Positions 4,436 through 41,149 of a stretch of 64,000 nucleotides of DNA are shown piece by piece. The notes below the pieces were generated by a model. That model was not told the DNA's origin. It was given only the letters and a program-made list of their open reading frames with translations, and searched no databases. The stretch's first letter is position 1, and each line of letters opens with the position of its first letter. Made by a program: the position numbers and the translations under genes. Source of the DNA: a phage; sequence record NC_111505.1; one strand, written 5' to 3'.

Positions 4436-4669
4436 ATGAAAGTTAAATTTCTTACAGATTTAGGGTACCCTTCCTTGGTTGACTGCGTTGGTAAAATTGT
4501 GGAAGCAAAACGACTATCTGCAAACGATAATGTTGTCATGGTTAAGGGAAAAGATTTACTATCTGCAGGTGCAGAGTCTGGCAGGATCTCTCCTGACTAT
4601 ACGTATTACCTGTCTTTAAGTAATCTACCAGAACGAGGCGGCAAAGGTCTTGAAGTTGTGGAGGAGTGA
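4436..4669 (+). CDS. small acidic protein, MKVK...VEIVE paralog family
   Basis: ATG with AGGAGG SD; N-terminal MKVKFL and C-terminal ...LEVVEE shared with at least 9 other ORFs in the window. Confidence 0.6.
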   Translation: MKVKFLTDLGYPSLVDCVGKIVEAKRLSANDNVVMVKGKDLLSAGAESGRISPDYTYYLSLSNLPERGGKGLEVVEE

Positions 4670-4674
4670 CAGGT

Positions 4675-5193
4675 ATGCTGCTAGTTGATTGGAAAGATTT
4701 TTATGGCGACAAAGACCCGAAAGCATTTATATATAAGCCTTGGAGATACTCAGAAAGTCAAATTGCTGCAATAAACCTTACAGCAAAGCGCCGAAAAATT
4801 ATCGAAAGTAAATATAGATACGCTCAGCTGGTAGCTGGTGTTTCTCCACAGGTAGAGAGTTTTGTGCTTAAACTGTACGAAAAGTTTATGAGTTACGATC
4901 TGTCATTCGTGAAGGTTGGTGATGATTTATCTCCTGGTAACAACGTAACCCGTTGGAAAGTTTCGTGTGACAAAAAACTCCCGATCAGTATTGAGGTGTG
5001 TCGATACTGGGGGTATCATGAGTGTGGATTTTATGACTACCATGATGTGGAAATAAAGCCACGCAATCATCTAAGCGACCCAGAAAAAGATTACTTGAAG
5101 CATGTGATTCTTTCCATGTTTGGAGGGTACATCACAGAGAAAAATAGCGAAGACAGAATATCCTTTCTTAACAGTTTGAACCAAGAGATGTAG
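4675..5193 (+). CDS. hypothetical protein (172 aa)
   Basis: Track start is GTG 4666; ATG 4675 has GGAGGAG 8 nt upstream. Confidence 0.55.
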   Translation: MLLVDWKDFYGDKDPKAFIYKPWRYSESQIAAINLTAKRRKIIESKYRYAQLVAGVSPQVESFVLKLYEKFMSYDLSFVKVGDDLSPGNNVTRWKVSCDKKLPISIEVCRYWGYHECGFYDYHDVEIKPRNHLSDPEKDYLKHVILSMFGGYITEKNSEDRISFLNSLNQEM

Positions 5194-5194
5194 T

Positions 5195-5431
5195 ATGACT
5201 ATAGACACTGTGCTGGTTTGGTATTGCGCATTGACCTTTCTGACAATGGTTGTTTTAGCAACTCTTTGCATCATATCTTGTAGAAAAATTAAGTTTGACG
5301 ACTTTATAACTATAATCACTGCCGCACCTTTTTGGCCTGTCGTTCTCTTCATTGTTGTTATGTGCTTGGTAGATCACTGTAAAACCGTCAGAAAAATGAA
5401 GGAGGCAGATAGGAATGGTAACAGTGACTGA
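5195..5431 (+). CDS. small membrane protein (2 predicted TM helices)
   Basis: ATG 5195; hydrophobic stretches; weak SD. Confidence 0.5.
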   Translation: MTIDTVLVWYCALTFLTMVVLATLCIISCRKIKFDDFITIITAAPFWPVVLFIVVMCLVDHCKTVRKMKEADRNGNSD

Positions 5432-28518: not shown

Positions 28519-29163
28519 TTAAATAAATTTCACCAATGTTATAGTCTCCTTATTATTTTTCAAATCATTCTCAAGGATAGTTATTGCACGTTTAATGGCG
28601 AACAGCCAAATCTCATCTTTGTTTTTAATAGCCTGAAGTTTCATCTCCTCAAGTTTCATTTCTTGCCACACCTTGTGTGCTGTCTGTGGATCATCGAAAT
28701 GACCGCCATGAACAATTTTTCCATCTCGATGACAATGCACGAGATACTTGTTTACATCTTTTCTAAGTGTCACACCCAAAGGTAAATCCCCTCGTGCTGC
28801 CTGTCTTATGCCAAATAAGGTGTTTATTTGTGGTGGGACAAACATACATGTTTCTGGGGAGTATATTCTGTTTCCAGGGATTTTCAGATCTTTGTCAAGA
28901 GTGAACTTCTTAGAGTCTCTTTTCCACTCTTGTGTATCCATCCATTTCCAGAATTCTGAGAACAACCACCAATCTTCTACAACTTCACAACCTGTATGGT
29001 ACTTTGAGTTATCGCCGTAGCACCTCTGGAATAATGCTTTCCATGTAGCGTAGTGGGGTTCTGGTACTCTCTTACCATTAATAGATTGGTACATTGGGAC
29101 TTTGTCTTTTAAATCGTTTACTCCACGACCACATACTTTTCTGTCTTTAACAGGTATTCCCAT
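28519..29163 (-). CDS. AP2-type DNA-binding domain protein, putative free-standing (HNH-like) homing endonuclease
   Basis: ...GVTLRKDVNKYLVHCHRDGKIVHGGHFDDPQTAHKVWQE... resembles AP2 domains of phage HNH homing endonucleases; track start is TTG 29166, ATG 29163 with AAAGGAGGG SD. Confidence 0.45.
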   Translation of the reverse strand: MGIPVKDRKVCGRGVNDLKDKVPMYQSINGKRVPEPHYATWKALFQRCYGDNSKYHTGCEVVEDWWLFSEFWKWMDTQEWKRDSKKFTLDKDLKIPGNRIYSPETCMFVPPQINTLFGIRQAARGDLPLGVTLRKDVNKYLVHCHRDGKIVHGGHFDDPQTAHKVWQEMKLEEMKLQAIKNKDEIWLFAIKRAITILENDLKNNKETITLVKFI

Positions 29164-29488
29164 CAATCCCTCCTTTTCCTTTGTACATGCGTAGAGGTAT
29201 AGTTTTTATAACATTCCATCTCCCCAACCCTTCCCAGTTCCAGTTGTGGGCGTGATACCCAGTTATGCATGCACTGCTGGAGTGATCATAGGCATAGGAG
29301 AACGCTATGCGTAACAGATGAGGCCAGTCTTTCCACGGCTGTGGTCCGTAAGCCTTTCTCCAACACCGACACAAACTAAATGTCTCAAGAATAGGCAGGA
29401 TAACAAATCCATACACCACCACCAAGATGATCAGCGCAATGATTGTCAGGAATACATACCCTGCAGTTGAAATGATGATCTCTGTCAT
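29147..29488 (-). CDS. membrane protein (N-terminal TM helix)
   Basis: ATG with GGGGAGG SD. Confidence 0.55.
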   Translation of the reverse strand: MTEIIISTAGYVFLTIIALIILVVVYGFVILPILETFSLCRCWRKAYGPQPWKDWPHLLRIAFSYAYDHSSSACITGYHAHNWNWEGLGRWNVIKTIPLRMYKGKGGIDGNTC

Positions 29489-36377: not shown

Positions 36378-36572
36378 CTAGACAAACTCTGCAAGGGTTG
36401 TGTTGTTCACTGCACCGCAGTAGATGGAATACCCCAACCCATTATGGTGCAGAAACCACGGCACACCTTGGTCATCCTTCACGTATACATCTCCATTTTC
36501 CGTAAAGGGCCAATACTCCTCTCCGAGGGTAAAATACCTACTCATACCTTCAGCCAGATACTTTACTTTCAT
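36378..36572 (-). CDS. small protein, KDDxGxxWF paralog family
   Basis: ATG with GAAGAGGA SD; ...VKDDQGVPWFLHHNGLGYSIYCG. Confidence 0.6.
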   Translation of the reverse strand: MKVKYLAEGMSRYFTLGEEYWPFTENGDVYVKDDQGVPWFLHHNGLGYSIYCGAVNNTTLAEFV

Positions 36573-36796
36573 AGATCCTCTTCAACAGCTACAAACTTGG
36601 CAAGTAGGGTGGTTCCATAGATATGATACTCACCATTTGCCAGATGGGAGATAAACCAGGCAACACCTTCCTCGTCTTCGATCATATTGTTCCTGCGATC
36701 CTTATCGTAGTAAACCTTGTAGACCTTACCTTCTTCAAAGAATGACAGGTCTGTCATCTTTTCTTCTACAAACGTCGCTTTAACCAAAGTTGTCAT
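36569..36796 (-). CDS. small protein, KDDxGxxWF paralog family
   Basis: ATG with AAGGAGG SD; ...EDEEGVAWFISHLANGEYHIYG. Confidence 0.6.
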   Translation of the reverse strand: MTTLVKATFVEEKMTDLSFFEEGKVYKVYYDKDRRNNMIEDEEGVAWFISHLANGEYHIYGTTLLAKFVAVEEDL

Positions 36797-37077
36797 TGAT
36801 CTGCCTCCTTCTTGTTGAGCCGGAACACTGCAATAATAGCATTTCCAAGATGCAGTGTCAAATCATTTCCCAGATACCATAACATTCCACGGTCATCTTT
36901 AATGAAAGGGTAACAATCCGGTGCCTTCCAGACATTATACACTTTGCCGACCTGAAAGAAATCAGGCCCTGTTGGAATTTTAGTACCTGGCCACACTTGA
37001 GACACCTGAACGCACTCTACCTGCATAATAACAGGAATAGTCATGGAGGTAAATGTTTTTGTCGGTTCTACTACCAT
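36793..37077 (-). CDS. small protein, KDDxGxxWY paralog family
   Basis: Track start is GTG 37167; ATG 37077 with GAGAGGAGA SD; ...IKDDRGMLWYLGNDLT. Confidence 0.5.
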   Translation of the reverse strand: MVVEPTKTFTSMTIPVIMQVECVQVSQVWPGTKIPTGPDFFQVGKVYNVWKAPDCYPFIKDDRGMLWYLGNDLTLHLGNAIIAVFRLNKKEADQ

Positions 37078-37126: not shown

Positions 37127-37480
37127 TTAGTGACAATCGCCCCAGTTACGACCACACAAGTATTCACCTGTGATCTGGAACGGAACGCCCATCATTTTAG
37201 AAGCTTGCCAGAAGCAATGCACCACCATTTCACCCACAGGGCTCCAGATAAGTTCAAGCTTTCCGTCATCGTTCAGAATAGGATCGTACACCGTGTTTCC
37301 GTCTCTGTCAACCACTTCGTTTCCGTTCTCATCCTTGCGTGCCTTTTTGTACTTATGACCGTCAAACACATGAAGTTTGGCCTCCTGTTCTGCCTTAAAT
37401 GCTTCCAGTTCTTCAATTGTGTCGAAGGTGTACACAGTCTTATACTTAGGCGTGTCAGGGACTTGAAGTTGGTACTCATC
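37127..37480 (-). CDS. DNA polymerase I-family (family A), 3' exon (motif C HDE to C-terminal ...NWGDCH)
   Basis: Frame begins DEYQLQ... directly after the intron's terminal G; ends with a family-A-like C-terminus (...NWGDCH); no independent SD or ATG (track 'M' is TTG). Confidence 0.6.
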   Translation of the reverse strand, partial: DEYQLQVPDTPKYKTVYTFDTIEELEAFKAEQEAKLHVFDGHKYKKARKDENGNEVVDRDGNTVYDPILNDDGKLELIWSPVGEMVVHCFWQASKMMGVPFQITGEYLCGRNWGDCH

Positions 37481-37756
37481 CAATAGTTCAGGTAGGTCGT
37501 TAAGCTACCCCGCACCATTACGTGCATAGCCATACGTTTTCACGTAGGATCGGACCATCTCATATTCCTATGATAAGCAACCACAGGAATCCTCCCATTT
37601 CGACCGCACTTGCTGGTCTACTTCCTTTCGGAATGGCCTCTGAGCGTTCGCTCTTTTGAGCGCTTCGTTGCGGATTACCTTGCCATAAGGTTTAGGCTTC
37701 CCGCAGTTAAAGAGGTTATTCGACATAGATTACTCTATGAAGCCACAATGTTATTT
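37481..37756 (-). mobile_element. ORF-less group I intron (IA2-like) interrupting the DNA polymerase gene at motif C
   Basis: 276 nt between pol ORF stop and 3' exon; 5' exon ends ...CAU (U), intron ends ...CUAUUG (G); GUGG near intron 5' end can pair with exon CCAU (P1, G-U at splice site); 3' part ...GGGGUAGCUUAACGACCUACCUGAACUAUUG resembles the T4 td intron 3' end as I recall it. Confidence 0.65.
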
Positions 37757-40700
37757 ATGGTAATAAATAATACGACGAACACCTTCATCGTACCACCCAC
37801 GCTTCACCATTTGGTGGTGCATGAGTATCCCAACTAAGTCACACAACGATGCACCACCATTTTGTTGGTATGCATTAAGTAAAGAGTGTTTAGATCGAGT
37901 CCAGATGGCATGACCATCAAAAGAGTAGATAAACTTCTTACCTGTTGCTTCCCAGAATTTCTCCAGATCCTCTTTGCGCCCCTTAAGACCAGGGTTGGCA
38001 TCCCAAAGCGCATCGATTACCTTTTGCCCTAACTCTGGGGAGATATCCAGCATGTCTGCAACTTTATCTTTTTGTGCCCCGTACATAACACCGTACGTGA
38101 CAGGCTTACCATCGTTACGGGAAATCTCCTTGCCTGCTACAGAAGAGTAAGCTTTGGCGTTATTACAGTTACCGCACACTGCCACTTTACCATTCCTTCT
38201 CACAATGATTGCTCCAGAAGGGACGGTAACGCAATAAACCAAAGAACCACTCACCTCGACAGACTCTTTAGATAGTGTCAGCAACCCTGCTCTCTGTTTG
38301 CTACCAATCGTGATTCTGTGCTGTACGGAACGACCTTTTTTGTGAATCGCCACCGTATTATTCCGTAAACCACACTGAGTAGCCAGCGCAGACACAACCT
38401 CTACAGATTTCTTCCTGCACTCGGCCTGAGAGTAGTAGGCAACTTTTCCACCTTCGGAAGATACCCACCCGTCCCAGTTAGATAAAGAAGCTATAAACAG
38501 GTTTTTAGATTCTTTATCAAGGTCCATCAGGTTGTAGGTGAAATCCTTATTGCTGTCCAAAAACTCAAATACCCAGGACGGAACGTGGAATTGGAACCTT
38601 CTCGCCAGTAAGCCCCCTTTTGTGGTTTTCCCGCCCTGCTCTACATAACTAAGGCTTAGAGCAGAAAAAGTATCTAAAAGCGTTGCAACTTTTCTGCCCT
38701 TCCCGACCTGAATCCTGCACACGATGCTGCCGTCCTTATTTGTATGCAAGTGTCCATCATCGTGAATAGCAATAAGCAAATTAATCTGGGCAGGAGATAA
38801 GGTTGTATTCCCATAAAACTCTGCCGCATGGATAAACCTTCTTCCTGAATTAGACCCTTTACCTGCTTTCAGGTCTTTTGCCAAATCTTCAAACAATTTA
38901 TTGCTTCTGTGATCCACGGTCAGCATCCTGTGTTGATCTGTAACCATAAAATCCACACCGCTGTTGTGGAAATGATACATATCCCCACAATAACCACGCT
39001 TAACGTAATTTAATGGTGTAACAAGGTTCATCGACGAGGTGTTGTGATCGTACTGGAACACTTGTGTTCCCGGATCAAGATCTTCAAACCTCACCCACCC
39101 TTTCTCCGTGAGAATTTGTGTATCTCCTGAATAACAGTGTGCATCGCCGTTACTTACAACATCATAATACAAGCCGTTGTCGAACTCAAAGGCACCCCAA
39201 GCCCCGATAAGCTGCTCTAAGTTGGACCCGTCAATACCGATCTCAAAGTATCCTGGAGGAACGCCCCACAGACTACGCATCTCTTTACCCATAACCACTT
39301 TAGGAGATGGTTTAGGCATGTTTGCACAAATACTGTGTTTCTGTCTGGAAGTGTTTGTCAATCCAGAACTTTTAGCAGGAAGCTTGTGGTCAATCTTCAG
39401 ACGTGGATGATTAAGAAGACCAGTATCAACCTTATCCTCCTTGATTGGATCAAGTACCGATCTACGGTTTCGCAAGGATAACCACAAGACGATATCTTTA
39501 GCCATCTCTCCGTTCAACTTTTCAAGATTCGGACATAGGTGTCCAAACGTATCTTTCAGTTGCGGAGAAGTAATAAGCGCTCTGGCTTTTCTACGTATCT
39601 TCCCAAACACTTCCTTTTTAATCCTTTCTGAGTTAGGGAAGCTTCGGAACTTGTGCACGGTTGTCTGAAACTTAGCATCAGTTTTGTTCCAGAAGTTGAT
39701 AATTAGGTCACAATACTCTGACTCTAAAAGCTCGTCCATATATGCATATACTCGTGCATCAACATCAGCATCAGGCAGAGCTTTCTTCTTGCTGTCCTTG
39801 GTTACATCTTTAGTTCTCCACATTGTTGGGAGCCAACCAGCGCTGATCAAATATCGCTTAATATCGTCCTGGTTGCTGATCTTCATAGGTATCTTGCAGT
39901 CAGGCATCCGCTTCTGCTGCAGATCACTTATTGCCTGATCCATTAGTTCTTTAGGTAAAGGATGTGGTGTCGAGGTACCTTTAATATACCCCCTTAAGAA
40001 ATCAGCCATCTTATCGGGGTCTTTGCAGCCCATCTCTTCACACCATTTTATCCCCATTTTGCTGACATCTCCTGTGGAGGTAAAGGCTCGCTTAGGTGGG
40101 GCTTTGAATTCTAAAGCACTCATGTCCACAGGATAGCCAAGCTTGTCTTTTAACCATTTCCAACCGTTATTAGAGATTGTCCCATCTTGGTTAAACGGCT
40201 TTTCAGGGAACTTAGGCCGCTGAGACATTGATAGCTCTTTTAGAGGAAGTTGTGGTTCAACACGATCAGCGATCTCTTTCATCCACGCATCGCAGCGGTC
40301 ACGTAAAGCAATAGCCCCATCTATGTCGAAATACACACCCTGTCGAGCCTGCAGCTCCATCAGGAAATGCTGCAGCATGCCTCGGCGTAATGCATTCTTC
40401 CAGGTGATCTTCTTGAAGCCTTTCGGCTTCTCTTTGGCAGGATCGTACATAAAGTTCTGCATGTCAGATTTGCCGTAGAATACACCTTTTGATTCTGCTA
40501 CCAACTCCTTCCAGAGCAACTCCTGGATGATAACGTCCTCGAACACACGATCCACATACTTCCACAGCGGAAGCTCACGCCAGTCATCGATTTGAACTTT
40601 CTGGTTACCAAGGGCATAGCCCCATGCCATAAGGCCATGAGGCCCAACAGGTTGCATTTTCTTGGTAACTGGATTGAATACTGCGTCCGGACAACCTTTT

Positions 40701-41149
40701 GGCAAAGGGCGGTCAGGCCACAAGATTCGACTCATCGCCAACGTATCAAATAGATTAACTTGGTGGTCGTTGATAGTCCCCATGCATTTAGGATCACGGA
40801 ACATATCAAAATGAACACCGGATAATCTTTCCATCAGCATAAAGTCATAGCTGTAGCAGTTATGACAGTTCAAAGCCGTAGGTGACCAGTCTGAATTGCC
40901 TGTAAGCCAGCCTTCCAACTCTGAAAAATCTGCTATGCGAGCCTCAAAATCTTTATAAAGAGTTTTCTTTGCCAGAATAAAGTTCTTAGCCTTTTCTACA
41001 TCCTCTTCAGAGTAGTGTGTGCGGTCATTTAGAGGAAGGAACAGCATAAAACGGTTCTTATTCAGCTCTTTAAACAAACCGCAGTGATAATAAAGATCTG
41101 GATCTTCCAAAAGCCCGGAGGCCTCCAAGTCGAACGACCACATGCTCAT
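37757..41149 (-). CDS. DNA polymerase I-family (family A), 5' exon including 3'-5' exonuclease domain and an in-frame intein
   Basis: FDLEASGL (Exo I), motif A ...IGIDGSNLEQLI..., motif B ...KPVTYGVMYGAQ...; ATG 41149 with AGGAGA SD; ORF stops (...IIYYHK*) exactly where motif C is expected. Confidence 0.8.
38168..39136 (-). mobile_element. Intein (323 aa) with LAGLIDADG-like homing endonuclease domain, between pol motifs A and B
   Basis: Insert begins CYSGDTQIL (Hint block A), contains TDQH (block B), LLIAIHDDG and FIASLSNWDG (dodecapeptide-like), ends ...VAVCGN followed by +1 Cys; motif A and B are about 370 aa apart instead of about 45. Confidence 0.7.

Follow-up and report, generated by a model that had tools for sequence, protein, structure and literature searches.

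The polymerase locus and its splice junction

In the window analyzed here, a 64 kb stretch of phage record NC_111505.1, a minus-strand DNA polymerase open reading frame (ORF) of 1132 codons runs from 41149 to 37751 and ends in ...GVRRIIYYHK, and a second ORF in the same direction, listed as (M)DEYQLQVPD...GRNWGDCH, lies downstream of it. The locus raises the question of whether these frames encode two proteins or a single enzyme interrupted by an intron, and what kind of intron that would be. The source of the window is an rV5-like coliphage of the genus Vequintavirus, and the nearest record over the polymerase among the matches listed is PV435126 (97.4%). The parts of the gene model are as follows.

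37757..41149, minus strand: DNA polymerase exon 1, 1131 codons including the intein (ORF list and sequence)
38168..39136, minus strand: in-frame intein, 323 aa (intein-free rV5 allele contiguous)
37481..37756, minus strand: 276-nt intron, supported as group I, IA2-type, with no endonuclease ORF
37127..37480, minus strand: DNA polymerase exon 2, 117 codons and a stop (ORF list, sequence and intron-free alleles)

The last codons of exon 1 are CGT CGT ATT ATT TAT TAC CAT, with the final base at 37757, and reading on into the intron gives AAA TAA, which produces the lysine and stop of the ORF end RRIIYYHK. Exon 2 starts at 37480 with GAT GAG TAC, the first two codons being the Asp-Glu of motif C, and ends at 37127 with ...GRNWGDCH and a stop, its C-terminal residue being a histidine as in T7 gp5. 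Between CAT (His, ending at 37757) and GAT (Asp, starting at 37480) lies a spacer of exactly 276 nt, with AAAUAAC at its 5' end and CUAUUG at its 3' end.

An allele without the intron was found in phage EduardKellenberger, whose polymerase is 99.5% identical and reads contiguously ...TACCAT/GATGAG... at this site. Its DNA, GAAGGTGTCCGTCGTATTATTTATTACCAT followed directly by GATGAGTACCAACTTCAGG, equals the end of exon 1 of the window joined straight to the start of exon 2. Because this allele is contiguous at CAT/GAT, both ends of the intron are fixed, and the splice boundary cannot be moved by even one base. The first-pass annotation had placed the intron at 37481-37756 and joined the exons after the CAT codon; the sequence check found these coordinates right to the base, and the intron-free allele bears out the junction. 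A tblastn search found an unbroken 213-aa match across the spliced junction in EduardKellenberger, A51.2, V18, Gotham and ECP32, at 97-99.5% identity. The ligated exons expected from splicing would read ...UAUUACCAU joined to GAUGAGUAC..., the conceptual protein across the junction is IIYYHDEYQLQVPDTPK, and the product rebuilt by RNA splicing and removal of the intein is a single enzyme of 925 aa.

Polymerase motifs and the intein

The spliced, intein-free protein (925 aa) was compared with T7 gp5 structures using phmmer, as the first-pass annotation had suggested, and gave an E value of 4.5e-16. The aligned region, T7 gp5 residues 468-658, spans GIDxSxLE, K..YG..YG and HDE, with motifs A, B and C collinear. 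By BLASTP against T7 gp5, motif A is GIDGSNLE where T7 has GIDASGLE, motif B is RNDGKPVTYGVMYGA where T7 has RDNAKTFIYGFLYGA, and motif C, YYHDEYQL, falls on WVHDEIQV at T7 residues 651-658. Judged from this alignment, the intron is positioned between the histidine and the catalytic Asp-Glu of family-A motif C, and the motif is restored when the exons are joined, which is what had been proposed for the locus. The family-A-like C-terminus that had also been proposed is matched by a weak collinear BLASTP segment that sets GRNWGDCH opposite the T7 C-terminus GPNWAICH. The polymerase scores 21.9 bits with the Pfam DNA_pol_A model, under the 34.3-bit cutoff, and is about 27% identical to the K1F-type T7-like host polymerases. 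Exon 2 contributes 117 aa past motif C, for which the T7 gp5 counterpart is about 50 aa; exon 2 alone gave only chance matches against PDB (phmmer), and an insertion of about 70 aa within it (about exon 2 residues 15-85) had no detectable homologue in PDB.

The same gene carries an intein that runs from CYSGDTQ... to ...VAVCGN, with an N-terminal Cys, a C-terminal Asn and a Cys at the +1 extein position, and that follows NGDAH, some 20 residues short of motif B. rV5, whose allele has no intein, reads NGDAH/QNNAEAY there, and nothing has been replaced in the window except the +1 residue, where Gln has become Cys. The earlier description of the polymerase as doubly invaded thus stands, with a Cys...Asn insert followed by Cys set against a contiguous rV5 allele, and polymerase records with and without the intein were both found. 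The intein profiles scored under threshold (Hint_2, 23.1 against 28.4 bits; TIGR01445, 16.3 against 24.5 bits), and the solved AceL NrdHF intein (PDB 6zgq) was matched at E = 2.3e-5. Full-length matches in PHROG were to unrelated host proteins (PhoH-like and ribonucleotide reductase), and residues 1-74 matched a thymidylate synthase PHROG; an intein would be expected to give such matches to unrelated host proteins. By eye, LLIAIHDDG and LFIASLSNWDG within the insert resemble LAGLIDADG motifs, and no endonuclease family was detected in the intein by Pfam.

Structure and covariation of the intron

The first-pass annotation had called the spacer a group I intron and named an Rfam search of the minus strand as a check. 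The Rfam family RF00028 (Intron_gpI) was found on the minus strand at 37766-37531 with 64.7 bits (E = 4e-14) over the full model, positions 1-253, where the gathering score is 50 bits. The whole 64 kb window, searched against Rfam at E <= 1, contained no second intron and no other RNA family. The Rfam alignment was extended by hand into a complete P1-P10 structure that includes P7.1, P7.2, P9.1 and P9.2, with the following elements, all on the minus strand.

37743..37750: internal guide CAUUGUGG (Rfam alignment)
37724..37739: P2 hairpin, CAUAG-AGUAAU-CUAUG, compensatory changes in 4 of 5 pairs
37710-37715 with 37591-37596: P3, CCUCUU with GGGAGG, 100% paired, 2 compensatory pairs
37669..37705: P4-P5 domain, P4 UGCGGG/UCCGCA and P5 GCC/GGU, helix 5 98% paired with 2 compensatory pairs
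37644..37667: P6/P6a hairpin, CG...CGCUC-AAAA-GAGCG...CG (covariation alignment, helices 6-8)
37634-37638 with 37553-37557: P7, GGCCA with UGGUC, forming a pseudoknot with P3, 100% paired, 1 compensatory pair
37622-37633: P7.1, UUCC-GAAA-GGAA, covaries
37619-37621: GUA linker between P7.1 and P7.2
37602-37618: P7.2, GACC...GGUC, covaries
37565-37589: P8 hairpin of 10 bp, 5 compensatory pairs
37530-37548: P9 with a GAAA loop and a one-base bulge, 4 compensatory pairs
37511-37526: P9.1, 1 compensatory pair
37491-37509: P9.2, 3 compensatory pairs, resembles T4 td
37481: terminal omega-G (sequence)

Five further lineages carry homologous short introns, each at the ...YH/DE... boundary of the polymerase.

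JEP1 intron: 328 nt
JLBYU08 intron: 329 nt
Klebsiella phage KP12 intron: 343 nt
Avunavirus 18-1-2 intron: 317 nt
Vibrio phage K470 intron: 254 nt

To look for compensatory change, six homologous introns (254-343 nt) were aligned, which come from four lineages of Vequintavirinae and from the Vibrio phage. The P1-P10 structure was 97.2% paired across this alignment, a percentage inflated by the structure having been drawn from the window sequence, and 31 of the 75 pairs had changes on both sides, a kind of count that is less affected. When the partner columns were shifted by 1-3 positions as a control, 35-40% were paired and at most 7 pairs were two-sided, and none of 500 column shuffles reached the observed pairing values. 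The compensated helices were P2, P3, P4, P5, P6a, P7, P7.1, P7.2, P8, P9, P9.1 and P9.2. In the 3' domain GCUA could also pair with UAGC, and this option was dropped in favor of P9.2 (GGUAG/CUACC), the only one of the two that covaries. The exact pairing of P5, which is much shorter in the window than in the JEP1/FV3-type introns, is ambiguous. The local hairpins also appear in the minimum-free-energy fold (z-score -2.83).

In P1 the guide bases GUGG pair with CCAU of the 5' exon (37757-37760), with a U.G at the 5' splice site, and this helix is paired in all six homologues. In P10 the guide bases CAUU, directly 5' of GUGG, pair with GAUG of the 3' exon (37477-37480), with 95.8% of the cells paired. 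P1 and P10 are invariant among the homologues, so neither gives a covariation signal. The pairing of GUGG with exon CCAU, which had been proposed from the letters alone, appears as P1 in the Rfam alignment, and the claim of a 5' exon ending in U and an intron ending in G fits both the U paired with G in P1 and the G at 37481.

In subgroup IA2, P7.1 and P7.2 are linked by G-U-A (PMC3428280). The window has UUCCGAAAGGAA-GUA-GACC...GGUC at 37602-37633, with P7.1 and P7.2 joined by G-U-A, and because of this arrangement we assign the intron to the IA2 type. An Rfam score above the gathering score and covariation across homologues together support the earlier reading of the spacer as a group I intron, here of an IA2-type subgroup.

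Open reading frames within and near the intron

The only ORF inside the intron encodes 52 aa (37568-37726) and overlaps the ribozyme core. It had no Pfam match. None of the five homologous short introns has it: four are without any ORF of at least 40 aa, and the Avunavirus 18-1-2 intron has just a different ORF of 44 aa. With no family match and no conservation in these introns, the 52-aa ORF was rejected as a gene, and the description of the intron as ORF-less is upheld. A tblastn search with related HNH proteins found nothing in or beside the intron of the window, and thus no free-standing HNH gene adjoining it.

Free-standing genes of this kind were seen elsewhere. About 8 kb from the intron, on the minus strand of the window at 28519-29166, is a 215-aa gene that matches PHROG phrog_953 ('HNH endonuclease') at E = 4e-65 and shares 33% identity with a gene of Vibrio phage K470, itself the carrier of a homologous ORF-less intron; in K470 that gene comes immediately behind exon 2 of the polymerase. 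In 241Ecol014PP, which has the same intein and 276-nt intron, a free-standing gene with NUMOD4 and HNH_3 domains lies right after exon 2 (4595-5242); its HNH protein is 33% identical to the HNH protein of the FV3 intron (E = 3e-15). The HNH genes of K470 and 241Ecol014PP, both of 215 aa and both just past exon 2, were considered as relatives and found to be unrelated.

Probable self-splicing of the intron

It is very probable that an ORF-less IA2-type ribozyme restores motif C by guanosine-initiated self-splicing, a catalytic activity that we infer here. The individual steps would follow the canonical group I mechanism, applied to the architecture, covariation, junction and restored motif that were seen directly. 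The guide CAUUGUGG would pair with CCAU, the last four bases of exon 1, to form the U.G wobble at the 5' splice site, and free guanosine bound in P7 would attack after the splice-site U. The guide would then pair with GAUG, the first four bases of exon 2, to form P10, the terminal G (37481) would enter the G-site, and the exons would be ligated. Ligation of ...TAC CAT to GAT GAG... would give one frame in which the catalytic His-Asp-Glu of motif C is rebuilt. Translation of RNA that remained unspliced would run into the intron only as far as its second codon (AAA UAA) and give a truncated polymerase without the catalytic Asp-Glu of motif C.

The closest experimental precedent is Pectobacterium phage CB7, a Certrevirus of the same subfamily, which has a homologous, HNH-bearing intron (CB7_50) at the same site. 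Its exon CB7_51 ends in ...RRIIYYHK and a stop, the intron starts with AAGUAACAUUGUGG, and CB7_49 resumes with DEYQLEV; the CB7 intron scored 46.6 bits against Rfam. Splicing of the CB7 polymerase intron was demonstrated by RT-PCR and Sanger sequencing (PMC7344957), and by analogy we infer that the 276-nt allele splices as well.

The same comparison brings up a different reading of the locus, that the insertion does not splice and that the polymerase is made as two polypeptides which associate after translation, as reported for the Aeh1 NrdA split by mobE. Aeh1 is cited as a precedent in the work on CB7, which also describes one CB7 intron that did not splice (PMC7344957). An ORF giving MDEYQ... 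can be drawn from a TTG that overlaps the end of the intron (37483), and several GenBank records, including those of rV5 and typing phage 5, annotate two coding sequences (CDSs). Against this, no Shine-Dalgarno-like sequence was seen by eye ahead of the TTG (...CGACCUACCUGAACUAUUG), the break falls between the histidine and the Asp-Glu of a catalytic motif, and the full ribozyme core is kept with extensive compensatory change, which is not expected of a non-splicing spacer. As the homologous intron that does splice is at this very site in CB7 (PMC7344957), we regard the two-polypeptide reading as highly improbable.

Distribution of the intron and the intein

The identical 276-nt intron (100%) was found at the same site in rV5 (NC_011041), O157 typing phage 5, LL12 (MH491969), PDX, navn, the BASEL phages MaxTheCat and RudolfGeigy, 241Ecol014PP and others, and at least 22 records match it at 99% or above. 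When the window was compared with rV5 and LL12, the introns were identical at 276 of 276 positions and the flanking 100-nt exon blocks differed by 1-6%. Such identity of an intron amid diverged exons would fit either strong constraint or recent exchange. The carriers of the 276-nt intron include more than 20 independently isolated, viable phages that are routinely propagated.

These figures bear on whether the intron has decayed, lost its autocatalysis and come to need a phage or host protein cofactor, or splices so inefficiently that it acts as a brake on polymerase expression. Its P5 is shorter than in the sibling introns, there is a one-base bulge in P9, and its 64.7 bits are the lowest Rfam score among the short homologues (65-91 bits, the five others scoring 70-91 bits). 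All the core helices are nevertheless intact, as are P7, which binds the G, and P1, P10 and the omega-G. At least 22 records have this sequence unchanged, which speaks for constraint and against decay, and the carrier phages are isolates in routine propagation. Decay of this kind is therefore very unlikely. The compensated pairing of the core, the homologue that splices and the many viable carriers are what make both this and the two-polypeptide reading unlikely, and we continue with a self-splicing intron as the preferred interpretation.

At least about 116 records have 95% identity or more to the C-terminus of the polymerase. Among the matches listed, we estimate that about 23 have the 276-nt intron and about 45 have a JEP1- or FV3-type intron, the latter count being the 80-90% identity band of the intron matches listed, and that the rest are intron-free. 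The intein and the intron assort independently among the Vequintavirus polymerase alleles, as the following combinations illustrate.

Window, EPFV3-03/2025 and 241Ecol014PP: intein present, intron present (276 nt)
NHEP1: intein present, intron absent
rV5: intein absent, intron present
EduardKellenberger: intein absent, intron absent

Several other features of these genomes were noted. In the large-terminase gene of phage Av-05 (KM190144), at about 120740-120872, there is a 73% match to bases 8-148 of the intron, and an intron related to that of the window thus appears to occupy another gene, the large terminase, in this phage. On the minus strand of the window at about 36451-36920, in a stretch that begins some 200 nt downstream of exon 2, 470 of 470 positions are identical to FV3, and the same stretch is just about 87-89% identical to rV5, LL12, JEP1 and others. 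This pattern, taken from pairwise identities, indicates a probable recombination mosaic boundary near the 3' end of the polymerase. About 15-20 'Campylobacter phage' records (MG0656xx, host C. jejuni) have a polymerase region that is 94-95% identical, and many of them carry the identical 276-nt intron; their host labels are doubtful, and they seem to be rV5-like coliphages.

Relation to previously described introns

The element is not new, because the identical intron has been annotated and published for sister phages and the site is known in T7-like phages; the intron, its insertion site and its kind have all been described before. The announcement of LL12 in 2019 described the DNA polymerase as disrupted by a predicted intron, and the LL12 GenBank CDS is a two-piece join labeled 'intron-interrupted gene', its splice site having been predicted from homology to AKU44295. 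The BASEL GenBank records annotate the join as well, and the BASEL paper identified the intron and intein boundaries comparatively. The 2013 rV5 paper reported a polymerase of 775 aa and mentioned introns in the terminase only, missing the one in the polymerase. In the rV5 (NC_011041, 2179-5130) and typing phage 5 records the polymerase is given as two separate CDSs, and the rV5 record has 'hypothetical proteins' gp222 and gp221 inside or across the intron. We regard the rV5 hypothetical protein matching the 52-aa ORF as spurious. The polymerase of the window has the intein, whereas those of LL12 and rV5 are without it.

Sibling introns of 842 nt with a homologous core are inserted at the same point in FV3, WalterGehring and ime, and the 3' half of the FV3-type intron is about 85% identical to the intron of the window. 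Those of FV3 and WalterGehring consist of a JEP1-type core with an ORF for a 168-aa HNH endonuclease in the P6a loop. The FV3-type siblings have longer P5 and P7.1 extensions, whereas P6a of the window has a plain AAAA loop and no ORF. A MAFFT alignment of the window intron with the 842-nt FV3 intron, in which the 5' half was misaligned, served only for placement of the ORF.

The polymerase gene of K1F, a T7-like phage, has ...AWVH, then an intron with an HNH ORF, then DELQ..., which is the same motif C site and is annotated as a join in RefSeq. In E. coli Pol I, motif C is His881-Asp882-Glu883. The polymerase introns of ΦI and W31 are described as lying at 'site 881', counted by the residues of that enzyme (PMC3428280). 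Like the intron of the window, those of K1F, ΦI and W31 are IA2 with the P7.1-GUA-P7.2 arrangement, and unlike it they have a P6a that encodes an HNH endonuclease. Comparison of the K1F intron with that of the window outside the P7/P7.1 core gave a score of 25, where the shuffle maximum was 29, and thus no significant similarity.

The first-pass annotation had pointed to a likeness to the terminus of the T4 td intron. The td intron ends in CGGGGUAAGAUUAACGACCUUAUCUGAACAUAAUG and that of the window in CGGGGUAGCUUAACGACCUACCUGAACUAUUG, and alignment of CGGGGU-AGCUUAACGACC-UACCUGAAC of the window with CGGGGUAAGAUUAACGACCUUAUCUGAAC of td gave a local score of 34, while 500 shuffles of the last 50 nt reached 21 at most, so the likeness is real. 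As in the window, P7.1 and P7.2 are present in td, and the P9.2 hairpin and 3' tail are recognizably homologous. The td intron differs in lying in the thymidylate synthase gene, in its length of 1017 nt in its record, and in encoding the GIY-YIG endonuclease I-TevI. The DNA polymerase introns of SPO1, SP82, Bastille and Pf-WMP3 have nicking HNH endonucleases and are at a different site, which is 674 in E. coli numbering, in the fingers subdomain (PMC3428280).

Mobility and implications for phage polymerase genes

With no homing-endonuclease gene, the intron would be unable to start its own spread, and it may persist because splicing leaves it nearly harmless. Movement between co-infecting rV5-like phages would probably depend on ordinary recombination or on endonucleases encoded elsewhere, for example in an HNH-bearing sibling intron at the same site. 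The Vequintavirus alleles of this one site include intron-free, ORF-less, endonuclease-bearing and endonuclease-adjacent forms. It is tempting to speculate that the ORF-less intron is mobilized in trans ('collaborative homing') by the HNH endonuclease of an FV3-type sibling at the same site or by a free-standing HNH gene such as the one behind exon 2 in 241Ecol014PP; we consider this a tentative and rather doubtful proposal, drawn from comparison of the alleles. If it were true, these alleles would form a natural series showing the entry of endonuclease genes into introns.

On its own the finding raises no new question, and its useful outcome is a corrected gene model, that is, one 925-aa enzyme produced after both RNA splicing and protein splicing. 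This matters for annotation, in that public records, including the rV5 reference, give a truncated polymerase of 775-810 aa, a 'hypothetical' C-terminal fragment and spurious intron ORFs. The locus is a further case of an established pattern in which selfish elements target phage replication genes at their most conserved catalytic sites, and the boundary between the histidine and the Asp-Glu of motif C has been used repeatedly, in T7-like podophages as well as in rV5-like myophages.
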